Shown here: piece after piece, positions 3,642 through 35,472 of the stretch | Layout: every line of letters begins with the position of its first letter | How positions within the stretch are numbered: position 1 is the stretch's first letter | Origin: a virus | DNA: 40,276 bases | Virus genome (UHGV): UHGV-0069047 | Strand: one strand, 5' to 3' | Notes under the pieces: model-generated | What the model saw: only the letters and a program-made list of their open reading frames with translations | What the model was told of the DNA's origin: nothing | The model's database searches: none | Translations under genes and position numbers: made by a program

Positions 3642-3729
3642 CGTTTATTGTGCATAAAAACCCCCTTAGAAGATGAGGTCCATCATACACAATAAACCAT
3701 TTACGGATAATAATTACCTAAATTTGGTC

Positions 3730-6381
3730 TTATTTTGATTCCAATAGTTCGAGTCGCTCTTCAATACGATCGCATCGACGGCGCTGATATGCAGCCTCAA
3801 GCCAAGCGCACTGGTCAGGCCGTATACCCCATGAACTACCCGCTTTTTTAACCAGCCTCTGTTCTCCGGTGTCATATTCGACGGTGACCAACTCACCAGA
3901 CGTATCGGTAATCTCTTTAGTCGCGATTACCGGCTCAAAAATATCATCCCACTCGTCATAGCAAAGAAGGCCAAATCTGGTTCCATCAATTCCGTGCGCC
4001 AAGAATACATCCCTTACCTGCTGAGCCATGACGCCAAAATGCCATCTGGCACCATCGCCCTTCATGGATATAGCGTCGAGCCATCGATACGCCACAACAG
4101 AAATATCGCCCCAGGCATCAAGAATGCTGTCTCTATCAGAAGAAAGCATTTCACTTAAATCTGATATTGCCTCGGGATTGGTTTTCAGCGTGGCATCTGA
4201 TGAAACGGTTGGGGCATTTGCAAAGTAGGCGTCTTTAATACGAAACGATGCCTGACCAAAATTATAGGTATTGTCAGCAAACGGGCGAAGACCTGTATCA
4301 TAAAACCGCCAGCGTATGGTTCCTCCCAATGCTGTCGGGTCGCTGTTGCATGCAATATCCACCGTGGTGGCAGACCTAAACACAGAAGAACTACCGCCCA
4401 ATACCAAGCTATTTGCGCTAGCTGTAGCCTGCTGGTCAAGGACCAATATTTTCTGAGAGTTTGTAGTTGCACCGGCATATGATGATGCAGTGATGCGGTT
4501 TAATTGGTTTGTATCAGGATCTGCGTTTTGCTGAATGGTTAAGTTAGATGCCCACTGTGCCGGTCGCTGGCGCACAAATACAAAGTCACCAGAAGGATTA
4601 GTTGCAACCAAATAACTAATGCCACTATCAGATGAATAATAGTTGACTATAAAAGTCTGATTATTCGCATTCAGTATTTCAACATATGTGCTGGAAGGGA
4701 TTGCCACGCCAGATATATCAGCAATGCTGACAGTCCCTGTGTAAAAATTAAATGCCTTCTGACTCATCTCCTGCATATAGCGAAGAATTTCAGTCATGTT
4801 AGTGAACAACGTACCATCTACAGGGTTAACAATCCCCTTCGCACTACGGGGATATACCCCAATGCTCGCGTGATCGATATCAAATCCGCGGTAAAGCCTG
4901 GATGCAGGTGTAAAATCGATAGCATCTTTATCAGTGGAGAAATCTTCGAAAATAACCAAACCTGAATTGTAAGGTTCAGAGCCAGTTCTTTCCTGATGAA
5001 TGTAAAGTGAATAAATGGATTTTCCATCCTGAGAAACACAAACGCCTTCATTTTCTATGCGAGTGACGTTCAATCCTGCGGCTTTCATTAAATCCATCAT
5101 GGCCTGAGGATGAAGCATTGATTCAGTTCGCTTTGTACCGTCAGGGTTAAAAACTTTGCTGCCCTGATATTCGTTATATCCTGCGCTTCCTGCCCCATCA
5201 GCTATGAAGCCGCCATAGCCGCAGACAAAGTAGTTATCACCTACCGCAATACCCTGACGCTTGTTGAAATAAGGCGCATAAGGTGAGGTGCTTTTAGTTA
5301 CATACCCAACATCATGTAACGGCAGCGTTATAGTTGACAGGCGATTGAAACCACTGTCGAACACTGCAAGTACAGTTCTTGTGATTTTCTGTCCTACTTC
5401 TGGCGCATTCTGCTCAACGAGCCATATACCTCTTCTGTAGCTGAACTGGTTGAATAATCCAACATCATGGTTTTGTACAAGAGGCAGATTGCTTCCGTAT
5501 AATGCCCCCTCCATATTAAATTCACGCAGTATTCCGTTTGTGTGACCAACAAACATTTTTTTGGGGCCATAGTCTGACGTAACCACGATTCCTTCAGCAG
5601 CGAAGCCTGGGCCGCCAGCCTGAACATAGAAATAACCTTGATAAATACCAGATATGTTAAATACTGCGACGACATTATTCGTCTGTTTAGGCTCAAATGG
5701 ATAAGTGATGTATATCAAATCTTCGCTAACGCAGAATCCTTGAGGATACATATAAGTTGCTGACGGGTTAGCAGCCATAATCGCATCATATTCAGGAAAA
5801 AGAAGCGGCATCGTAGCTACAATCTTTCTTTGGTGATTTGTAAAAATATCGTTTTTAGCGCTGTTAGGTGTAGGCGTTACACCTCCAGTAAAAAGATCAT
5901 CAACATAACCTTTATTGACAGCATCGTTTCTGTCAGTGGCATTTGCTAGATTTGATATCTTATTATTTTTTGCATCATAATAGTTAGCCAGAATGCTTGG
6001 TTTTATAAGTGCTAACCTCATCCATGAAAAACACTTTTGAATAAGCATTGTCAGTTTATCGAACGCGTCTTCATGTACCTCAGCGAAGAACTTACCCTGA
6101 TTACGCAAATCAGTATCCTGCGTAACCGGGATCTCTCGTGATATAGAAATATGATAACCGTTAGCCAACGCCTTCGACAGAATTACATTACCGCCATTAT
6201 ATCCTCCAGCATTGGTTACTGTGTAGTCAGTATCCAGAACCAATTCTGTTACGTTCCCGTTCAGGTCAGACACCTGAACAACCAGGTCTGATTTTCTGAA
6301 AATTCGAAAAGTATACGGAAACGATGTCGTAACGCCGTTACCTGTGTATTCGTTGTGGTCAACTTCGGTTGAGACCGTCAT
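3730..6381 (-). CDS. tailspike with C-terminal intramolecular chaperone (peptidase S74-like) domain
   Basis: 883 aa; conserved tail-fibre-like N-terminus; C-terminal block (SDRDSILDAWGD...GIRPDQCAWLEAAYQRRR) resembles the autoproteolytic chaperone domain of endosialidase-type spikes. Confidence 0.75.
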   Translation of the reverse strand: MTVSTEVDHNEYTGNGVTTSFPYTFRIFRKSDLVVQVSDLNGNVTELVLDTDYTVTNAGGYNGGNVILSKALANGYHISISREIPVTQDTDLRNQGKFFAEVHEDAFDKLTMLIQKCFSWMRLALIKPSILANYYDAKNNKISNLANATDRNDAVNKGYVDDLFTGGVTPTPNSAKNDIFTNHQRKIVATMPLLFPEYDAIMAANPSATYMYPQGFCVSEDLIYITYPFEPKQTNNVVAVFNISGIYQGYFYVQAGGPGFAAEGIVVTSDYGPKKMFVGHTNGILREFNMEGALYGSNLPLVQNHDVGLFNQFSYRRGIWLVEQNAPEVGQKITRTVLAVFDSGFNRLSTITLPLHDVGYVTKSTSPYAPYFNKRQGIAVGDNYFVCGYGGFIADGAGSAGYNEYQGSKVFNPDGTKRTESMLHPQAMMDLMKAAGLNVTRIENEGVCVSQDGKSIYSLYIHQERTGSEPYNSGLVIFEDFSTDKDAIDFTPASRLYRGFDIDHASIGVYPRSAKGIVNPVDGTLFTNMTEILRYMQEMSQKAFNFYTGTVSIADISGVAIPSSTYVEILNANNQTFIVNYYSSDSGISYLVATNPSGDFVFVRQRPAQWASNLTIQQNADPDTNQLNRITASSYAGATTNSQKILVLDQQATASANSLVLGGSSSVFRSATTVDIACNSDPTALGGTIRWRFYDTGLRPFADNTYNFGQASFRIKDAYFANAPTVSSDATLKTNPEAISDLSEMLSSDRDSILDAWGDISVVAYRWLDAISMKGDGARWHFGVMAQQVRDVFLAHGIDGTRFGLLCYDEWDDIFEPVIATKEITDTSGELVTVEYDTGEQRLVKKAGSSWGIRPDQCAWLEAAYQRRRCDRIEERLELLESK

Positions 6382-6485
6382 GTTAAATCTCCAGATAGTC
6401 GCAGCACCCGTTGCGCCGCATATCTGGTTATTCTATTACCCAAAAAACCATATATGGATAGAAAGACTGTGAATATGAATAGATA

Positions 6486-6500
6486 TTACCTTTCAGGTAA
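6486..6500. promoter_or_regulatory. operator-like palindrome TTACC-TTTCA-GGTAA
   Basis: Perfect 5-N5-5 inverted repeat, intergenic. Confidence 0.5.
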
Positions 6501-6537
6501 TTTGCAAAACGTGCTGGATAGCAAACAAATTATTTGC

Positions 6538-6557
6538 TACTGTATAAATATACAGTT
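6538..6557 (+). promoter_or_regulatory. LexA (SOS) box upstream of antirepressor module
   Basis: TACTGTATAAATATACAGTT matches CTGT-N8-ACAG with AT-rich spacer, 5 nt before the first ATG. Confidence 0.6.
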
Positions 6558-6577: not shown

Positions 6578-6835
6578 ATGCAGCAGTATAACTATCCACT
6601 GGAAGACGGATTTACCGAAAGGATTCACACGCCGGGAGGCGTCAGGTCACTGGTGGAGGGATCGCACTTGATGAAATTACTCCGGGATCTCGATAAGGAT
6701 GGATTTAATGTCGATGGCCCACTTGCCGAACTGACTGCACTGATTAACTACGTCACCAGCTCACAGATGTCTATGCAGGATCTGCAAACACATCTCGACT
6801 ATTGTGCCGAACAATTACGAAAGCAAACCAGATAA
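6578..6835 (+). CDS. small protein homologous to the C-terminal domain of the adjacent antirepressor
   Basis: Aligns with the C-terminal ~70 aa of the 7153..7809 product; SD GGAGAAG before ATG 6578. Confidence 0.45.
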   Translation: MQQYNYPLEDGFTERIHTPGGVRSLVEGSHLMKLLRDLDKDGFNVDGPLAELTALINYVTSSQMSMQDLQTHLDYCAEQLRKQTR

Positions 6836-6866
6836 GGTTTGCAATTACCAAGTGGAGTGCTTATAT

Positions 6867-6881
6867 TTACCTTTGCGGTAA
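6867..6881. promoter_or_regulatory. operator-like palindrome TTACC-TTTGC-GGTAA
   Basis: Perfect inverted repeat, upstream of antirepressor gene. Confidence 0.45.
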
Positions 6882-6972
6882 ATTTACATCGCACTCCTCT
6901 TGTGCCATAGTAATCAGGCACTGGCAAAATCCAGTGCCGGGATTGGTCTCCCGGATTACTAAGTGGCGCATA

Positions 6973-6995
6973 CCACGCCAGACGTGGTTTTTTTA
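6973..6995 (+). terminator. rho-independent terminator
   Basis: CCACG-ccaga-CGTGG followed by TTTTTTTT. Confidence 0.55.
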
Positions 6996-7152
6996 TGCGT
7001 ATAGCACAGTCATGCCAGAATTATGGTGGGCTGAATGGGGGTCCGAAAGGACGCCGGTACCACTTAGGCCGGTAAGACCAACTCCGTTCAGTTCACCACC
7101 ATCTGATTGGTCTCAGCGGTGGTGATGTAATTCGCTAAGTGGAGACGCCATC

Positions 7153-7809
7153 ATGAACGCTCAACTCATCCCCGTATTCAACGGCACTATATCTAACGAA
7201 ACAGCCCTACTTTGTAATGCCCGCGATCTGCACGCTTTTTTAGGTGTTAAAAAGGTGTTTGCAGCATGGATTACAAATCGCATTTCAGAATACGAATTCA
7301 TTGAAAATCAAGACTATATTTTGCTTTCCAATTTGGGAAAGCAAACATCTGGTAGAGGCGGACACAACCGCAAAGAGTACCACCTCACCCTTGATACAGC
7401 CAAAGAGCTGGCGATGGTCGAGCGTAACGAAAAAGGTCGCCAGGTGCGACGCTACTTCATTGAATGCGAGAAACGTTTAAGACAACAAGAAACAAAAGTG
7501 GAGAAGGTCTTGTCAGGCTTCATGCCCGCCATTATGGAGGCGATCAAGCTGGAAGACAAAAAAGAATACAGTGCACCGCTGAAGCCCGGCTACCGGAGCC
7601 TGATTCATTCGCCGTCTGGTGTTCTCGGCCTGACGGAGAACTCACTGCTGATGAATTTGCTGAACCAGTTACAGGAAGACGGGCATGACGTATCGGGCGC
7701 GGCGGCGGAACTGACCACCATGTTCTGCTACATCGTTGGTGTGAGCAAATGCCTGCGTGATATCCAGACTCACGCGGAGTACATCAACGACAAAGCAGGA
7801 TTCTTCTGA
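7153..7809 (+). CDS. antirepressor (AntA-type N-terminal domain)
   Basis: N-terminal block (IPVFNGT...[10 protein letters not shown]...[32 protein letters not shown]) matches the AntA/AntB antirepressor domain as I recall it; SD GGAGACG. Confidence 0.65.
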
Positions 7810-7853: not shown

Positions 7854-7896
7854 TTGCAGACTGGGGGTGAATAGAGTACTATTACCCCAAAGGTAA
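7854..7896 (+). promoter_or_regulatory. sigma70-like promoter (TTGCAG-17-TACTAT) overlapped by operator TTACC-CCAAA-GGTAA
   Basis: -35 at 7854-7859, -10 at 7877-7882, palindrome at 7882-7896, strong SD GAGGGGG follows. Confidence 0.5.
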
Positions 7897-7922
7897 ACCG
7901 AGAGTTTACATGAGGGGGAAAC

Positions 7923-8111
7923 ATGGAAATCAACATCATTACATTGCTGAAGGCCATTATTGGCGGAGCGGGCTTAGGCTTTGCCCTACCAGGCGGATTA
8001 TCTTTCCTGCTTCCTGCTTTTACTGTTACAGCTGGGATAGCCTATGCATTTGCTGTGGCTGGTGCTGTTGCACTCCCTGCTATCTATGCCGCAAAGAAGT
8101 TAGCCAACTAA
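7923..8111 (+). CDS. small hydrophobic membrane peptide (62 aa)
   Basis: Strong SD; Gly/Ala-rich, two predicted TM helices. Confidence 0.5.
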   Translation: MEINIITLLKAIIGGAGLGFALPGGLSFLLPAFTVTAGIAYAFAVAGAVALPAIYAAKKLAN

Positions 8112-8112
8112 A

Positions 8113-8445
8113 ATGCCTGATTTATCTTGGCTTGCGCCCAGAGATGCACAGCAATTGACAAGGTTTTATTTCATACTGTGCATTGCTTATCTTGCTGTTC
8201 ATCTGATATGGGATGCCGTTTGCAAAGATACGCCTCCTTTTTCTTTGGATAAGTTGCAATACAAGATGAATGAGGTTTATTCATCATCTACTTTTGCAAC
8301 CAGCGCATTCTTCATTGTTATTCTGTTCGATATGAAGAATCCACTGAGAACTTCAGATGCTTTCATATTCCCATTAATTATTGCTGCTCTAACTGGCTTT
8401 ATGATCTCATTATCAGCAATAGTGCCAAAGAAAGTAAATAACTGA
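8113..8445 (+). CDS. membrane protein (110 aa)
   Basis: ATG 1 nt after upstream stop; three hydrophobic helices; terminator follows. Confidence 0.5.
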   Translation: MPDLSWLAPRDAQQLTRFYFILCIAYLAVHLIWDAVCKDTPPFSLDKLQYKMNEVYSSSTFATSAFFIVILFDMKNPLRTSDAFIFPLIIAALTGFMISLSAIVPKKVNN

Positions 8446-8448
8446 ATA

Positions 8449-8470
8449 AGCCCGCGTTGCGGGCTTTTTT
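8449..8470 (+). terminator. rho-independent terminator
   Basis: AGCCCGC-gttg-CGGGCT followed by TTTTTT. Confidence 0.65.
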
Positions 8471-8542
8471 ATGGACGAAACAAAAGTCAGTGCTACACTC
8501 ATTGACGCCACATTGAGGTGGCTTATAGATGGAAATGTCACA

Positions 8543-8704
8543 ATGAAAAAAGCATTTGCTGCACTGTTCGTTTTGTTGTCTCTGGTAGCTTCAACTCAGG
8601 CCTTTGCCGGTCGTTGTCAGCACGACAGCGATACTGCCGCTGACGGCTCCCGCTGCGGTGGGCGTTCTGCGGATTCCCGCCCGGGCGGCGGTGGCATTCG
8701 TTAA
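8543..8704 (+). CDS. small secreted peptide (53 aa precursor, 2 Cys)
   Basis: Signal peptide MKKAFAALFVLLSLVASTQAFA then Gly/Arg/Cys-rich 30-aa tail; start at internal ATG 8543. Confidence 0.4.
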   Translation: MKKAFAALFVLLSLVASTQAFAGRCQHDSDTAADGSRCGGRSADSRPGGGGIR

Positions 8705-19500: not shown

Positions 19501-20108
19501 CAGGACAACCTCGCAATGGTAAACTCGTCAACCGGTGGCTGTGGTTCCTGTGATTCATTCTGGCTATGCGAACCAGCACTAAGAATCACGCGATTGTACA
19601 TCTTGAGAGCAAATGTACCGAGATCCGCATTCCCAGTCAGCGCCATGTTAATAGCTGCCGCAAGACGCCAGGCCAACGCCTCCATAAAAATGGCATCAAA
19701 CATGTTCACATCTGAAACGCGAGAGACATACTTGAGCCATGCCTGAGGCTGGTCTGTGTAGATCAACTTTCCTGTTCCGTTGGTGTCTGCACCAACTTCG
19801 TACTGAACGCGCATTGCTGCTGTTGGATTGCGTACACCAGGAAGCATAATTTCACTAATGCGCAGACAATCGGACGGGTACTGATACGCATATTCCCAGT
19901 CAGGCGGTGGATTGCTCGTATCTGCAAGCGCCACGCGTTTGGTAGCAAAGTTCCAGTCAAAATCAGAAAGCACAGCATCACGGCAGGCCTCAAAGTGCAG
20001 CGAACATTCCCCCGCTTCCTTGCTGGCTTCCGTCAGGCTGTTAATGCTGCGGCTGTTGCCAATATTGGACAGCGCACGATTACAGATCTCTACTACAGAG
20101 GCCATCAC
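19500..20108 (-). CDS. tail tubular protein A-like
   Basis: 202 aa immediately upstream of the gp12-like gene, as in T7 gp11. Confidence 0.55.
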   Translation of the reverse strand: MMASVVEICNRALSNIGNSRSINSLTEASKEAGECSLHFEACRDAVLSDFDWNFATKRVALADTSNPPPDWEYAYQYPSDCLRISEIMLPGVRNPTAAMRVQYEVGADTNGTGKLIYTDQPQAWLKYVSRVSDVNMFDAIFMEALAWRLAAAINMALTGNADLGTFALKMYNRVILSAGSHSQNESQEPQPPVDEFTIARLS

Positions 20109-25206: not shown

Positions 25207-25296
25207 ATCAATGACTCCGTACGCAATTAAATTATTACCAATTTAACCATATATGATTTATTTATCGTAGATAGTTGACATTTAACGCACAAATTA

Positions 25297-25311
25297 TTAC
25301 CTTTCAGGTAA
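25297..25311. promoter_or_regulatory. operator-like palindrome TTACC-TTTCA-GGTAA
   Basis: Identical to site at 6486; TTGACA hexamer 17 nt upstream. Confidence 0.5.
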
Positions 25312-25631
25312 GCAAAGAGTTCATTCCGGTTATTAACCTGACTGGCTTGTCGTTAAATTGAACAGGTGGAGTGAGCTTTTATTTTGAGCAGTACGGCGTA
25401 TGGCACATGCGCCGATAGCGGTCTGGATACGTTTAAGGGGCACCCTCCCTTGCTCGGGCAAACGAACCAGGTAGCCGGAATGTGCAAGCCCCGTTCATAT
25501 CGTCGGACCGAGGACTCACCATCCTGGCGATTCGGTGTGACGCCTCGGAAGAGACGAGGGTACAACGATGAGAGCATTTATGGAGCCGCGACAAAGTGTG
25601 GCGCCTTAACAGGCTAAGTGCTCTCAGCGTT

Positions 25632-25708
25632 GTGGCATTAGCTCAGTTTGACAGAGCAACCGCCTTCTAAGCGGTTGGTCGCAGGTTCGAATCCTGCATG
25701 CCACGCCA
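25632..25708 (+). tRNA. tRNA-Arg (anticodon UCU), phage-encoded
   Basis: Hand-folded cloverleaf: 7-bp acceptor GTGGCAT/ATGCCAC, D-stem GCTC/GAGC, anticodon stem ACCGC/GCGGT with loop CTTCTAA, T-arm GCAGG-TTCGAAT-CCTGC, encoded CCA. Confidence 0.85.
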
Positions 25709-25752
25709 GAATCACGCCTAAGGACCGTGATGCCAGAAGTTCCAGGTGCTTG

Positions 25753-25796
25753 GCGGTGATAGTTTCCCTTGAAGGACTATCACCGCCCTTTTTACA
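25753..25796 (+). terminator. rho-independent terminator after tRNA
   Basis: 12-bp stem GGCGGTGATAGT/ACTATCACCGCC followed by CTTTTT. Confidence 0.6.
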
Positions 25797-25871
25797 GCAG
25801 GACGCCATTGCGATGACTTCATGCTGTAAACCCGTGCAGCCACGGAAGGCAGAACTCATTGCTTCCAGTTC

Positions 25872-25895
25872 GCCCGGTTCGCCGGGCATTTTTTT
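25872..25895 (+). terminator. terminator or attenuator hairpin abutting the next gene's SD
   Basis: GCCCGG-ttcg-CCGGGC followed by ATTTTTTT, then AAGGTGAG SD and ATG 25907. Confidence 0.55.
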
Positions 25896-25906
25896 AAGGT
25901 GAGATT

Positions 25907-26278
25907 ATGAACGACCAGCAAATCGAAAAAGAAATCGTTGAGAAAGGCAAAACGGCACCGCGCGTTACGCCAGACCATATCGAAGGCATTATTGCTCAGG
26001 AGGCATATTTCACAGCAGAAGATGGTGCCTTTGGCAAAGCCATAAAAGCGAAACATACTGGCGGAGAGGTAAACTACCAGCCGCACGAATCACTTTCTCT
26101 GCTGACGTTCTGCGTCCTGGTGCTGCGCAACGGCTTCACCGTCACCGGAGAGAGCGCCTGTGCAAGCCAGGAAAACTTTGATGCAGAAATTGGTCGGAAG
26201 ATTGCCCGGCAGAATGCTGTAAACAAAATCTGGATGCTCGAAGGTTACTTGCTGAAGCAGAAGCTAAGCGAGCAATAA
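25907..26278 (+). CDS. conserved hypothetical phage moron protein (123 aa)
   Basis: Strong SD; plus-strand gene inside minus-strand late operon; possibly gp49-like family, from memory only. Confidence 0.55.
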   Translation: MNDQQIEKEIVEKGKTAPRVTPDHIEGIIAQEAYFTAEDGAFGKAIKAKHTGGEVNYQPHESLSLLTFCVLVLRNGFTVTGESACASQENFDAEIGRKIARQNAVNKIWMLEGYLLKQKLSEQ

Positions 26279-27844: not shown

Positions 27845-28569
27845 TGATTGCCATCCTGACGTTCTTTCAGTCTCTTCCTGGCTGCCGCTATGCGATCAGC
27901 AATTGTCACATTCACATTAACATCCAGGCGTTCTTTGAATGCGTTGACGTCGACGTGCTTACCAATCAGTTCGAGGTTTTTCACCTTGTCGGGCCATTTC
28001 ACCTTCTTCAGGATATGCTCGACATCCTCAACAGAGAGATCCGCCTCGCCATTCTCTTTTTGCAGAGAGGCCTGAGTCGTCTTGATAGTAGCGATATCCA
28101 TCGCGCTGAGAGAGGTGCGCCATACCTTAGGCCACTCAGCGATCGGCTTCATCCCGCCGTCGTCGTTCAAGATATCCAGGACATCCATCTGGTCGATCTC
28201 TACCAGGCGCATGAGGACGTAATCAGCGCTGACGCGCATTCGTTTGTTGCGCTCCTCCATCAACTCGGCAATCCGTTTTTGAATGCGTTCATCGCGCATC
28301 ATGACACTGGCTTTAACTGCCGCTGTATTTGGGGAGAATCCTGCGTTAATCGCTGCCTGAGTCTGGTTTTCAGGCGTTTTGATGTATGACTGGCAATAAG
28401 CCTCCTGCATTGCTGTTAGTGGCTTAAATTGCGTTGATTTGCGTTTATAGGTTTTAGGTTCAGCAGGCATCATAACCACCGTGGTAATAGTTACCGTTGT
28501 GGTAATAGTACCATGCAAAATAAAGCCGCCATAGTTGGCGGCAGTATTCAAAACCATCAAATTCATCAT
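27841..28569 (-). CDS. terminase small subunit
   Basis: Immediately upstream of and overlapping terL; true start may be the internal MMPAEP (near 28473). Confidence 0.6.
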   Translation of the reverse strand: MMNLMVLNTAANYGGFILHGTITTTVTITTVVMMPAEPKTYKRKSTQFKPLTAMQEAYCQSYIKTPENQTQAAINAGFSPNTAAVKASVMMRDERIQKRIAELMEERNKRMRVSADYVLMRLVEIDQMDVLDILNDDGGMKPIAEWPKVWRTSLSAMDIATIKTTQASLQKENGEADLSVEDVEHILKKVKWPDKVKNLELIGKHVDVNAFKERLDVNVNVTIADRIAAARKRLKERQDGNQ

Positions 28570-32364: not shown

Positions 32365-32429
32365 GATTTACCCCTGAGGTAATTAAAAACCACATAAGAC
32401 ACGAAATCAATAGATTTTAGAATATTTTA

Positions 32430-32444
32430 TTACCTCATAGGTAA
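32430..32444. promoter_or_regulatory. operator-like palindrome TTACC-TCATA-GGTAA
   Basis: Perfect inverted repeat in the intergenic region between P-like gene and downstream genes. Confidence 0.45.
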
Positions 32445-32481
32445 TTATTGAGACGTAAAAAAATGCGCTATCGCGCTGGTA

Positions 32482-33282
32482 TTACTTGATAAATCCTGCC
32501 GCCTTTCCCCGCCTGTATTCCTCCATCAGCCACTGCGCCGGTGTTATTCCCCCCAGGGTGGCGGCGTTAGGCATGCACCCGAAACTTCGCCCTGATGGAT
32601 GGTAAACGTCTCTCCCTGTGTCCGGAGGTGTACTCATGGGTTCTGGCTTTGCCTGTATGCTGATCACCGGATCGGGTATCTGCTGTCCGGAAGCTACCTT
32701 TTTCGCCCAATCATCGAGCAGCCTGCGCGCGTGTTTCTCAACCTCAATCTCGCTAAGCTGGCGCTGATACATTGCACGGCGGGTATCACATACGACCCAG
32801 TACATAACCGGATGTCGCCACGGAAATCTTTCGGGACCACCAGGATATAAACTTTTTTCCTTGCTGTACCGGTGAAACTCCGCCATCACATCGTCAATGG
32901 TGACGCCAAGAACCATCTTGCTGTCTTTGCACCACTTGATAAATTGCCCTGGCGACGGCCAGAACGGAGATTCGCTGGCGCGGGCGTGGCGCATACCAGC
33001 AGAAACCTGTTCACGGGTTCGGATCCCCCCTTCGGCAAACGCAGCAATCCACTGCTGTTTTGCAGCAACTTCCTGCTCTGGCGTCTTCAGGTTGGTTACC
33101 ACTGCCGCCGGAAACAGTTGTTTCAACTGTTTGAAAAGGGCATCAACAAGCCTCTCTGCTGACATGTTCACTACGTTGTCATTGTTGGTGTACTGATGCT
33201 CATAACCTGACATGCGAGAAAGGGCTTCTCCGTCACGGTTTTGTATCGCGGTAAAAACGTTGTTCACAAGAAATCCTCCCAT
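32482..33282 (-). CDS. replication protein, lambda P-like helicase loader
   Basis: Block AGMRHARASESPFWPSPGQFIKWC matches lambda P (NAGMRVARRQNRPFLPSPGQFVAWC) from memory; exact start uncertain. Confidence 0.7.
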   Translation of the reverse strand: MGGFLVNNVFTAIQNRDGEALSRMSGYEHQYTNNDNVVNMSAERLVDALFKQLKQLFPAAVVTNLKTPEQEVAAKQQWIAAFAEGGIRTREQVSAGMRHARASESPFWPSPGQFIKWCKDSKMVLGVTIDDVMAEFHRYSKEKSLYPGGPERFPWRHPVMYWVVCDTRRAMYQRQLSEIEVEKHARRLLDDWAKKVASGQQIPDPVISIQAKPEPMSTPPDTGRDVYHPSGRSFGCMPNAATLGGITPAQWLMEEYRRGKAAGFIK

Positions 33283-34079
33283 GCTTCAGGGCTGTTCCAG
33301 TGCGGAACGTTGTTATCAGGTAATGTTGATTGCTTCTGTCTGCTAATCTGCAGCCGCCTTGCCAGCTTCTGCTCCCACTGTGCCTGATGGTATGCCTTAC
33401 CCTCAGCCATCCAGTAAATTCTGAACTCTGCAAGTTCCTGTGCCGTTGGCAGACTGTCCAGGTAGATCCCCTGCAATGAGCTTTTCCGAAGAAAGTCATC
33501 TGATGGTTGCCATTGTTCATGCATGACAAATTTGCCTAATTGCCCTGGCCCACCAGGAGGAACAAAGTTATTCATCACGGCGTTGTTTGCGCCGGGGTCA
33601 TGAGGCACAGAATCCCCGCTTTTTGTCCTGCTCTCCCTCTCTTGGTTAAATGACTGGTTATATGACTGGTTCTGGATCCCGTTTTTGGGATCATTCAACA
33701 TCCCGTTTTTGGGATCATTCAACATCCCGTTTTTGGGTATATTCCCGTTTTCGGTAACATTACCGCTTTCGGGTTCATTACCCCCTTCCCGGTTGCCTTT
33801 AATGTTCCCGTTTTTGGTTATATTAAGAGAGAAAACCCGCACTCTTTTCGTCGCTCCCTTTCTCTCTCCGGTATCTGAAATAAGCCCCATTTTCATGAGC
33901 GATATAAGCCCGGCCTGCACGGTTTTTTTATTCATGCAAGTGTCTTTAACGAGGCGTTCTATGCTGGGGTAGCAGAGGTTATATTCATCGGCTCTGTCAG
34001 CCATCGAGAGCAGTATGAGCTTTAATGACGAGCTACCTGGATCTGTCTCCCAGGCCCAATCTGTTGCATGTCTGCTCAT
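33264..34079 (-). CDS. replication initiator, O-like
   Basis: N-terminal winged-helix-like region, internal iteron array encoding repeated PKNGMLND peptides, directly upstream of P-like gene. Confidence 0.6.
   Translation of the reverse strand: MSRHATDWAWETDPGSSSLKLILLSMADRADEYNLCYPSIERLVKDTCMNKKTVQAGLISLMKMGLISDTGERKGATKRVRVFSLNITKNGNIKGNREGGNEPESGNVTENGNIPKNGMLNDPKNGMLNDPKNGIQNQSYNQSFNQERESRTKSGDSVPHDPGANNAVMNNFVPPGGPGQLGKFVMHEQWQPSDDFLRKSSLQGIYLDSLPTAQELAEFRIYWMAEGKAYHQAQWEQKLARRLQISRQKQSTLPDNNVPHWNSPEAWEDFL
33676..33824. repeat. origin-like iteron array inside initiator gene
   Basis: Two perfect 24-bp units ATCCCGTTTTTGGGATCATTCAAC, then about four degenerate CCGTTTT-GG-type units. Confidence 0.65.
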
Positions 34080-34094
34080 GATTAATCTCCGCTA

Positions 34095-34358
34095 TCAGCT
34101 TGAATGTTGTGGGGAGGAATTAATCATGATCTGCTTAATCTCTGCCCTGATACGACGGTTTGATTCCATGGTGCACTCAACACAGTGTCCATTGTAAACC
34201 CAGCGTTCACTGTCATGTCCGTGCTTACATGTTTTTCCGGTGTAGTAGCGTTTAAGTCCGCGCTTTGCGGCATCAATACGTGTAATGATTTCCATGGTAA
34301 GCCCTGTTATTAGTATTGGGATTACGGTTATTTTGTGCTGACACAAAAAAAAGATCAA
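34095..34358 (-). CDS. small zinc-finger protein at the cII position
   Basis: Likely start at MEIITR; CKHGHDSERWVYNGHCVEC cluster; between cro-like and O-like genes. Confidence 0.4.
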   Translation of the reverse strand: MIFFLCQHKITVIPILITGLTMEIITRIDAAKRGLKRYYTGKTCKHGHDSERWVYNGHCVECTMESNRRIRAEIKQIMINSSPQHSS

Positions 34359-34375
34359 CCATATTTGGTTTTTTA

Positions 34376-34390
34376 TTACCTTTAAGGTGC
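34376..34390. promoter_or_regulatory. imperfect operator-like site TTACC-TTTAA-GGTGC
   Basis: One half-site variant; adjacent AACCATATTTGGTT palindrome. Confidence 0.35.
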
Positions 34391-34676: not shown

Positions 34677-34712
34677 AGCTATTGCCTGATATTTATTTCA
34701 GATAATAAATAT

Positions 34713-34775
34713 TCACCCATAAGGTAACAAAAATCAAGGATAGTTACCTATGAGGTGCATTTACCTGTTGGGTAA
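34713..34775. promoter_or_regulatory. OR-like operator cluster in the immunity switch
   Basis: Three sites: TCACC-N5-GGTAA (34713-34727), TTACC-N5-GGTGC (34744-34758), TTACC-N5-GGTAA (34761-34775). Confidence 0.55.
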
Positions 34776-34830
34776 TATTGCTTTAAATTGAATCATCTAC
34801 TGATTCATATATGAGGCGATTTTCCAGAAA

Positions 34831-35415
34831 ATGAAAAGTATCCAGGACGTCCGCAGGCAAAATCTCAACGACTTGATCGACCGTGAATTCAATGGTGTTC
34901 AGACGCGGATGGCAGAAAAACTTGGAACTCAGGCAAATCTGGTAAACCGCTGGGCTCTTGGCAAGAAGGTTATCGGCGACCAGGTTGCGCGAAAAATTGA
35001 AGCTGCCGCCAATAAACCACGTAACTGGCTTGATATCGATCGCTCGCTTTCTCAGGAAGGTTTTCAGCCTGTCGGCCCAAGCGACATTGGTCAGCTGGCG
35101 GCTCACAACCTGGAACGCTGGATGAGCGAAAGCCGCGACCTTTCAACACAGGGAAAACTTCACCGCGCATCCGGCGTCGCCCAGGTGACAATCAGCCGCC
35201 TGTTAAACAATGAGGTCAGCGTTTCCATTTCCACCCTGGAGAATGTTGCATCCGCATTCGGGCGTCACGGCTATGAATTACTGATTCACCCGCACGACCC
35301 TGCGACCATCAACTATGACCGCTCGCGCTACGCATTGTTACCCGAAACCGAGAAAGCAAAGATCGAAAGTTACATTGAATTTGTCATCAACCAGAACGAA
35401 AAAAACAAACAATAA
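34831..35415 (+). CDS. prophage repressor-like protein lacking an S24 peptidase domain
   Basis: 194 aa with two HTH-like segments, no Ala-Gly / Ser-Lys autocleavage module; divergent from cro-like gene. Confidence 0.55.
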   Translation: MKSIQDVRRQNLNDLIDREFNGVQTRMAEKLGTQANLVNRWALGKKVIGDQVARKIEAAANKPRNWLDIDRSLSQEGFQPVGPSDIGQLAAHNLERWMSESRDLSTQGKLHRASGVAQVTISRLLNNEVSVSISTLENVASAFGRHGYELLIHPHDPATINYDRSRYALLPETEKAKIESYIEFVINQNEKNKQ

Positions 35416-35461: not shown

Positions 35462-35472
35462 TGTCTACACAA

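Follow-up and report, generated by a model that had tools for sequence, protein, structure and literature searches.

A repressor half-site, an AACC box, and a Rep operator at fixed spacing in two control regions of a Uetakevirus-type prophage

The immunity switches of phages SPC32H and epsilon15 are the closest described counterparts of the system examined here. The SPC32H repressor Rep and its antirepressor Ant provide a structural model of 'noncanonical' repressor binding and of antirepressor-driven prophage induction: Rep binds DNA as a tetramer, the N-terminal domains paired on one operator belong to different dimers, and Ant breaks up the tetramer (PMC9638917). The tetramerization domain of Rep resembles those of DNA-looping regulators (PMC9986798). 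In phage TP901-1, a composite OM-OR operator is bound by a CI-MOR complex, a topology conserved across related phages (PMC7250872). We analyzed a viral genome of 40,276 nucleotides, UHGV-0069047 (at its full length, the window), in which two cassettes, at positions 6431-6500 (site 1) and 25231-25311 (site 2), each combine a lone Rep half-site, a quasi-palindromic AACC box, and a full Rep operator. We consider it reasonably probable that these cassettes are the control regions of divergent promoter pairs, in which a Rep tetramer would bridge operator and half-site and silence both promoters, with the box as a coupled second site. An initial annotation, read from the sequence, had correctly placed both cassettes and their shared arrangement, together with a third site at 34348-34390.

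The region around the cassettes matches Escherichia phages phiv142-3, phiV10, and TL-2011b, Enterobacter phage Tyrion, and Salmonella epsilon15-like phages, and we assign the window to the Uetakevirus prophages (epsilon15/phiV10/SPC32H type). Phages of the phiV10 type serve as O157 reporter phages and often occur as prophages in pathogenic E. coli and Salmonella. The comparison covered nine genomes (the window, phiV10, epsilon15, SPC32H, Tyrion, BUCT554, BUCT711, Kp4865-1, and PAT1), to which five prophages were added for site 1 (two from Citrobacter and one each from Erwinia, Pseudocitrobacter, and Scandinavium); a footprint set for site 2 comprised 80 close relatives representing 56 distinct sequences. 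The window resembles the SPC32H/epsilon15 switch in its homologous Rep and Ant, its half-sites, the positions of the cassettes, and an SOS box before ant. In the orientation used here, the late operon lies on the minus strand and runs from terS, near 28500, through the head and tail genes to the tailspike gene (6381-3730) and the lysis genes. The switch genes are as follows.

34831-35415, plus strand: rep, encoding the repressor, with an N-terminal helix-turn-helix (HTH) domain containing an invariant NLVNRW, a middle HTH_3 domain, and a C-terminal tetramerization and Ant-binding domain
34676-34446, minus strand: gp39, encoding a Cro-like HTH protein, divergent from rep, with the three-operator OR (34712-34776) in between
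6578-6835, plus strand: ant, encoding the small antirepressor, a homolog of SPC32H Ant (PDB 5D50_E, E = 4e-46)

The rep product matches SPC32H Rep, the structure of which has been solved (PDB 5D50_A, E = 4e-42), and also gives a Pfam match; in the SPC32H record the two orthologs are labeled 'rep' and 'ant'. The domain description follows PMC9986798, and alignment of the nine genomes shows the recognition helix NLVNRW of Rep to be invariant.

Block structure, operators, and spacing of the two cassettes

The elements that define the cassettes are listed below.

6435-6440, plus strand: lone Rep half-site ATTACC of site 1; its minus-strand reading, GGTAAT, overlaps the -10 predicted for a leftward tailspike promoter; invariant in 14 of 14 related sequences
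6446-6459: AACC box of site 1, AACCATATATGGAT; position-weight-matrix score 24.1; conserved across relatives
6485-6501: full Rep operator of site 1, ATTACCTTTCAGGTAAT, which includes the shared 16-mer and starts 50 bp from the half-site; the homologous positions in epsilon15, 19895-19911, are annotated 'protein_bind repressor'
25234-25239: lone half-site ATTACC of site 2
25296-25312: Rep operator of site 2, which includes the shared 16-mer and starts 62 bp from the half-site; the homologous positions in epsilon15, 2931-2947, are annotated as a repressor site

When the two intergenic regions are aligned locally, their likeness resolves into two blocks. Block A, TATTACC-N5-AACCATATATG, is identical at 19 of 23 positions, so that the similarity extends past the 16-mer; AACCATATATG lies at 6446-6456 in site 1 and at 25245-25255 in site 2, and the base that follows it is G at site 1 only. 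Block B, the second segment common to both cassettes, is TATTACCTTTCAGGTAA, and the 16-mer ATTACCTTTCAGGTAA is identical at 6485-6500 and 25296-25311. The blocks are separated by unrelated DNA, 25 nt of it at site 1 and 37 nt at site 2. The likeness is a common motif architecture rather than a single contiguous duplication of 75 bp, which is ruled out by an alignment limited to two blocks with unrelated spacers; the 'duplicated ~75-bp cassette' of the initial annotation thus survives as two shared blocks. At the third site, AACCATATTTGGTT at 34357-34370 is followed by ATTACCtttaaGGTGC at 34375-34390.

These motifs are strongly overrepresented relative to shuffled versions of the window. With at most one mismatch, TTACC-N5-GGTAA was found 12 times against 0.57 expected and AACCATATATG seven times against 0.68 expected, while the combinations ATTACC-N5-AACCNNATNNG (two found, 0.01 expected) and AACC box-N4-ATTACC (four found, 0.02 expected) show an even sparser background. 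An independent repeat search of the window recovered both motif families (D2, D6). Chance duplication is ruled out by the shuffle expectations together with the conservation described below.

Both 16-mers are exact TTACC-N5-GGTAA matches within a full operator of 17 bp, ATTACC-N5-GGTAAT. From the motif counts and the epsilon15 annotation, we assign the 16-mer as the operator of the phage repressor Rep, in agreement with the initial annotation. Other operators lie in OR, within the rep/gp39 gap; in OL, downstream of rep, where two operators 62 bp apart flank the predicted PL; before the DUF1064 gene, again as two 62 bp apart; at the terS start, as two in tandem; in the 6.4-8.7 kb island, which holds three; and at 25297, where there is one. 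The operator part of the finding is already known in substance, because the epsilon15 record annotates the homologous positions of both 16-mers; this RefSeq record also marks other operator clusters as 'protein_bind: repressor'. What is apparently new is the architecture of half-site, box, and spacing: unlike the public epsilon15 annotation, which gives full operators only, the window presents a lone half-site, an AACC box, a 50 or 62 bp spacing, and predicted leftward promoters, all of them unmarked in the records examined.

Both cassettes occupy the same two positions in 9/9 phage genomes, from phages of Escherichia, Salmonella, Enterobacter, and Klebsiella, and the site 1 cassette is also present in 5/5 of the added prophages. 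Measured between the lone ATTACC and the ATTACC of the operator, the spacing is 50 bp in 14/14 sequences at site 1 and 62 bp in 9/9 at site 2. In the site 1 alignment, the 25 nt between the blocks are essentially unconserved. At site 2, TTGAC(A/C) and both operator halves are conserved and the spacer is variable; the 80 close relatives show almost no variation in the half-site, the box, the -35 TTGACA, or either arm of the operator, and their substitutions cluster in the operator center, the promoter spacer, the stretch immediately 5' of the -35, and the DNA downstream. We read this pattern as the signature of functional sites kept at a fixed mutual distance. Fixed-spacing operator pairs also occur at OL (62 bp), at a further site before the DUF1064 gene (site 4; 62 bp), and at OR (48 bp); the 62-bp pairs at OL and before the DUF1064 gene are found in all genomes, with one pair at 63 bp in each of two Klebsiella phages. 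The rightward cargo downstream of the cassettes varies between phages: ant alone or ant with isrK/C4 and a second antirepressor, a tRNA present or absent, and different open reading frames (ORFs). Because the cassettes hold fixed positions with invariant spacing, we interpret them as resident control regions of divergent promoter pairs and not as portable moron promoters.

The AACC box and its candidate binders

Position-weight-matrix and pattern searches identified about seven AACC boxes in the window, with the consensus AACCAnATAnGGwT. The three occurrences in the initial annotation are genuine but an undercount, since the box is also found at 3695, at 6826, and, in degenerate form, at 32388 and 35516. 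In addition to the two cassettes, the sites are as follows.

34357-34370: AACC box of site 3, followed after 4 nt by the degenerate operator ATTACCtttaaGGTGC, which extends to 34390; before gp40 and past the terminator of the cro-like gene
32367-32445, minus strand: site 4, with operators at 32367-32383 and 32429-32445, 62 bp apart, a degenerate AACC box at 32388-32401 between them, and a conserved CTATTGA -35 region
35472-35550, plus strand: site 5 (OL/PL), with operators at 35472-35488 and 35534-35550, 62 bp apart, and the predicted PL, TTGACA-N17-AATCAT (35507-35535; 10/12 matches to consensus)
3695-3708: AACC box of site 6, followed after 4 nt by ATTACC at 3713-3718; past the end of the tailspike gene, ahead of the lysis genes
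6826-6882, plus strand: second control region within the island of site 1 (site 7), with an AACC box at 6826-6839, ATTACC at 6844-6849, a predicted promoter TTGCAA-N17-TATATT at 6839-6867, and a Rep operator at 6866-6882

A Rep half-site, ATTACC or GGTAAT, lies 4 or 5 bp from every copy of the box: the two cassettes have the order ATTACC-N5-box, and the other five sites have box-N4-ATTACC. Conservation of the two arms, AACC and GGTT, around a variable center at sites 3, 6, and 7 is the pattern expected of a site bound by a dimer. Relative to the predicted promoters, the box takes no constant position: it falls in the spacer at PL, where the degenerate box occupies 35516-35529, and at site 4; over the -35 at sites 1, 2, and 6; and next to the -35 (near -41) at sites 3 and 7. 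On the minus strand, site 6 has a -10-like TATGAT 7 nt downstream of the box, and site 3 has a conserved promoter-like pair, TTGATC (34358-34353)-N17-CAAAAT (34335-34330), 5' of gp40 (34095-34295). In the phiV10 equivalent of site 6, the box is followed 28 nt later by an operator heading oac, making a third cassette of the same build. Comparison of the relatives revealed no box kept at OR/PRM; the weak look-alike there, at 34806-34819, is unconserved.

From its distribution, we regard the AACC box as a genus-wide second motif coupled to Rep half-sites. It is most likely the site of a dimeric factor, or an alternative Rep contact, coupled to Rep occupancy. The initial annotation had described this element as a second palindrome, AACCA-N4-TGGTT, that hinted at a second DNA-binding factor. 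The motif is indeed distinct and conserved, and its constant association with repressor half-sites makes a second DNA-binding activity a reasonable, if unproven, reading.

Three phage proteins, gp49, gp39, and gp40, were judged as candidate binders by the co-occurrence of homologs and boxes in other phages, and none was supported. The Cys-rich regulator gp49, encoded just 5' of terS, has a 67%-identical homolog in Pectobacterium phage ZF40, the genome of which lacks any box. The zinc-ribbon protein gp40 was uninformative, since many lytic phages encode HNH and endonuclease VII proteins with this zinc ribbon at the N-terminus. The Cro-like protein gp39, the partner implied by the initial annotation, initially looked promising: its recognition helix is invariant in all nine genomes and different from that of Rep. 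However, its homolog in Psychrobacter phage pOW20-A faces a Rep-like CI (N-terminal domain homologous to Rep, 38% identity, E = 1e-10) at a locus where ATACC-N5-GGTAT sequences are the only palindromes and no AACC box is present. Because this locus carries canonical TACC-N5-GGTA operators only, gp39 is most likely a conventional Cro acting on canonical operators.

The pOW20-A immunity module (L217, 2659-3731) is itself related to that of the window, with a Rep-like N-terminal domain, a gp39-like Cro, and TACC-N5-GGTA operators. The C-terminal part of its repressor (232 residues, 'CI-like repressor') is wholly different, with no alignment to the tetramerization and Ant-binding domain of Rep, and by eye it appears S24/LexA-like. 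Relative to Rep, this would be a domain swap on a common DNA-binding module.

Other candidates fared no better. For integration host factor (IHF), the best fit of the box to WATCAANNNNTTR by eye has at least two mismatches in nine specified positions; the IHF sites annotated in epsilon15 adjoin the operator, off the box, and lack conservation. Across phages the box is invariant, whereas the middle HTH_3 domain of Rep shows little conservation. A search of IMG/VR for the exact 14-mer AACCATATATGGTT returned mostly chance or Uetakevirus matches, and the one five-copy locus proved to be unrelated 31-bp iterons. A single fixed activator position was also rejected: neither a class II nor a MerR-like model fits every site, because the register of the box relative to the predicted -10 elements differs.

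Predicted divergent promoters, proposed Rep bridging, and alternative readings

The predicted promoters of the two cassettes, and the LexA box that follows site 1, are as follows.

6430-6458, minus strand: predicted leftward late promoter of the tailspike gene (3730-6381, minus strand), with -35 TCCATA (6458-6453), N17, and -10 TAGAAT (6435-6430)
6540-6555: LexA (SOS) box CTGTATAAATATACAG, directly 5' of ant; the sole match in the window against 0.10 expected; kept in all relatives
25229-25257, minus strand: predicted leftward late promoter for gp3 and the head genes, with -35 ATCATA (25257-25252), N17, and -10 TAATTT (25234-25229); weak, 7/12 matches to consensus
25276-25312, plus strand: predicted rightward promoter of site 2, with -35 TTGACA (25276-25281), N17, and -10 TACCTT inside the Rep operator at 25296-25312

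In the predicted leftward promoters of both cassettes, the lone GGTAAT is overlapped by the -10, and the -35 is formed by the right half of the 'palindrome'. At site 1, invariant alignment columns contain both elements, and the epsilon15 ortholog, TTCATA-N17-TAGAAT, is directed at the tailspike gene and is the sole promoter match in that intergenic region. Site 2 has the same geometry, its leftward promoter overlapping the half-site at 25234-25239 and the AACC box at 25245-25258, and the region is near-invariant in the 80 close relatives and in the nine genomes. Overlap with these predicted promoters would explain much of the conservation of block A, and would put a Rep half-site over the -10. 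Both cassettes head plus-strand islands inside the minus-strand late operon. The initial annotation had recognized them as plus-strand moron entry points, a description that fits their position but not the cargo of site 1, which is the presumably SOS-controlled antirepressor Ant, a core switch gene. Because both cassettes lie directly 5' of minus-strand late genes, beyond a plus-strand island, transcription may need to restart there; the leftward promoters would restart transcription of the tailspike and head genes past the islands.

The motifs, statistics, conservation, spacing, and protein homologies are observed; the promoters, loop, and box function in the mechanism that we propose here are our interpretation of them. 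In the lysogen, one Rep tetramer, a dimer of dimers, would fill the full operator with one pair of N-terminal domains, and the other pair would reach the half-site in block A, closing a micro-loop of 50 or 62 bp that shuts the rightward promoter and the leftward late promoter together. At site 2, the structured RNA, tRNA-Arg, and a small ORF would be driven by a strong rightward promoter with a -10 overlapped by the operator; at site 1, the operator would lie just 5' of the putative, LexA-boxed promoter region of ant. The site 1 operator abuts a conserved TTGCA, about 40 bp 5' of the perfect LexA box. Upon induction, cleavage of LexA would allow Ant to accumulate and dismantle the tetramer, freeing both promoters.

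This arrangement resembles that of looping repressors such as Rco of plasmid pLS20 and those of gal and lac in its looping-type tetramerization domain (PMC9986798) and in operator pairs at fixed spacing. Unlike in Rco, gal, and lac, the proposed loops would span just 48-63 bp, and in both cassettes one partner is merely a half-site. Several points weigh against the proposal. Every promoter is a consensus prediction, and the leftward ones of the window are weak (8/12 and 7/12), falling below the scan threshold and so unlisted by the promoter scan. A lone half-site is a poor target for an HTH pair, a loop of 50-62 bp is energetically costly without a bending factor, and 50 and 62 bp cannot both be whole helical turns. 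Finally, the register of the box differs across promoters, so that no one mode of action covers all.

The alternative that survives best is a composite operator used by two factors, which we regard as possible but rather unlikely. Here the box would be bound by a separate dimeric protein, of phage or host, beside a half-site filled by Rep, with which it would cooperate or compete, so that each lytic promoter would have two 'keys' in the manner of the TP901-1 OM-OR operator. The quasi-palindromic form of the box, its conserved AACC/GGTT arms and variable center at sites 3, 6, and 7, and its constant distance of 4-5 bp from a half-site argue for this reading, as do its presence at lytic promoters and not at OR/PRM, and a conserved center and 6-bp arm spacing unlike the variable N5 of the Rep operator. 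The composite operator of TP901-1 offers a precedent (PMC7250872): in both cases a second motif directly adjoins the repressor sites, although the resemblance is analogous and not homologous. Unlike TP901-1, where the composite site lies at the repressor's own promoter, the window lacks the box at OR/PRM and carries it at lytic promoters; no MOR-like partner was identified, and gp39 is disfavored. The failure of gp49, gp39, gp40, and IHF as binders counts against a second factor, and Salmonella phages have lost the box from the PL spacer.

It is unlikely, though conceivable, that the box is instead a low-affinity variant of the Rep operator, (T/A)AACC-N6-GGTT(A/T), with one extra base between its arms. 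Box and neighboring site would then offer three or four half-sites to one tetramer without long-range looping, and a single repressor would act at all promoters with no additional protein required. The ACC...GGT core is common to both motifs, bona fide operators tolerate TAACC (at 28473 in the window, and in Tyrion), and pairing of N-terminal domains from different dimers on one operator may be flexible (PMC9638917). However, the center of the box (ATA) is conserved and that of the operator is free, an HTH dimer normally loses binding when the arm spacing changes by 1 bp, the related pOW20-A module lacks such variant sites, and the middle HTH_3 domain of Rep is poorly conserved despite the invariant box.

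More doubtful still is the reading of block A as promoter core only, that is, as the -35, spacer, and -10 of two paralogous leftward late promoters, with the other AACC sites alike through common ancestry of A/T-rich promoter DNA. The predicted leftward -35 and -10 do coincide with the most conserved bases, and the AACC half of the site 1 box is degenerate in three lineages (ATCC, ACAAC, ATCC) that retain TATATGAAT. Yet sigma-70 spacer bases are normally unconserved, whereas AACCA is invariant at site 2 in the nine genomes and the 80 close relatives; the same 14-mer occurs at five other sites in varied promoter registers, each 4 bp from ATTACC or GGTAAT; and the invariant operator distance of 50 or 62 bp is left unexplained. 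Were the box promoter core only, the finding would reduce to an ordinary, mostly already annotated operator arrangement.

The portable promoter cassette of the initial annotation, a mobile promoter-operator unit of about 75 bp inserted twice and traveling with accessory genes, would account for the variable cargo downstream of both copies and for the phiV10 unit heading oac, but is largely refuted and very improbable, since the cassettes hold orthologous positions in every genome regardless of cargo with invariant internal spacing, the DNA between their blocks is unrelated, half of each serves essential late genes on the opposite strand, and ant is a core switch gene and not a moron.

Returning to the proposed control of divergent promoters by Rep, we tentatively suggest, at less than even confidence, that the box marks a regulator so far unrecognized in the epsilon15/SPC32H switch, which could be a protein of the phage or the host, or Rep itself binding DNA in a second mode. 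This would impose a two-key logic at essentially every lytic promoter except PR, with micro-loops of 48-63 bp coupling divergent promoters. If the half-site, box, and spacing are functional, isolated palindromic operators, as currently pictured, are only part of the system: repression would involve composite sites and loops of very short length tying late-gene promoters to the antirepressor and tRNA islands, and about seven concrete, testable sites would be available for finding the missing factor.

Cargo of the islands and further features

In the island of site 1, a perfect LexA box directly precedes the homolog of SPC32H Ant, and the prophage is therefore presumably induced through SOS-controlled antirepression rather than through cleavage of its repressor. 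The second control region, at 6826-6882, heads an additional module.

6918-6994, plus strand: isrK-like RNA (Rfam match, 67.7 bits)
7019-7103, plus strand: C4 antisense RNA (Rfam match, 61.2 bits; threshold 45)
7153-7809, plus strand: AntA-type antirepressor of 218 residues, with an AntA N-terminal domain (Pfam) and C-terminal residues 135-216 that match the PHROG family of the small Ant

The c4-a1b1 model scores 38.4 bits here, against a threshold of 46.7, and its match overlaps that of isrK. The whole module (6905-7809) thus resembles immI of phage P1: an isrK-like RNA, a C4 RNA, a sub-threshold c4-a1b1 match, and then the 218-residue protein. The product of 7153-7809 looks like a second, RNA-gated antirepressor with the same Rep-binding module as the small Ant. 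This module distinguishes the window from epsilon15 and SPC32H, which lack it. In phage P1, the operators of the C1 repressor are scattered genome-wide, including before c4-icd-ant, and the operator is asymmetric. The window shares with the P1 C1 network and immI (c4-icd-ant) a set of operators scattered over the genome, one of which precedes an operon of C4 RNA and antirepressor; unlike P1, it has a repressor of an unrelated family, a palindromic operator, and a LexA-controlled small Ant upstream. No icd gene was identified in the window, though no search aimed at icd-like ORFs was made. In phage P22, immI places ant, arc, and mnt between the late genes and the tailspike gene. The site 1 island is similarly an antirepressor module transcribed against the late operon and adjoining the tailspike gene; the P22 regulators Mnt, Arc, and sar RNA differ from those here, which are LexA, Rep, and a C4-type RNA.

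The island of site 2 carries the following.

25390-26278, plus strand: site 2 cargo, with a conserved structured leader RNA (about 25390-25560), tRNA-Arg(TCT) at 25632-25708, and an ORF of the gp49/gp66 family at 25907-26278

The non-coding stretch at 25390-25560, about 170-220 nt in length, is highly conserved across Uetakeviruses of Escherichia, Salmonella, Enterobacter, and Klebsiella. Its RNAalifold consensus contains 29 pairs, four of them with compensatory changes. No Rfam family matched at E <= 1, and the epsilon15 record labels the region merely as an 'RNaseIII' site. We consider this leader a candidate new structured RNA co-transcribed with the phage tRNA.

Further Rep operators mark other possible control points. 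Two lie in tandem, 18 bp apart, at 28472-28506, between a strong terminator-like hairpin and the start codon of terS. Because they leave hardly any space for a promoter, entry into the late operon may depend on read-through from the early-right operon, with Rep as a roadblock. Another operator, ATTACCCCAAAGGTAAA at 7881-7897, may head a third Rep-controlled unit with accessory genes: the site 1 island ends in three small plus-strand ORFs without an assigned function (7910-8704), and the operator stands just 5' of them. Beside the predicted -10 of gp40, at 34319-34331, relatives have a compressed palindrome, ATTACCGTAAT, composed of two Rep-like half-sites without a spacer; the version in the window reads ATAACCGTAAT on the minus strand.

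Two observations concern regions away from the cassettes. The early-left operon (38479-40226) encodes a DndB-like protein, associated with DNA sulfur modification, and an adenine methyltransferase of the MT-A70 family. Three tandem repeats of 24 bp (ATCCCGTTTTTGGGATCATTCAAC) at 33669-33747, with related copies at 33739-33825, fall within the minus-strand gene for the replication initiator (33264-34079); these are probably origin iterons, like those of the lambda O gene.

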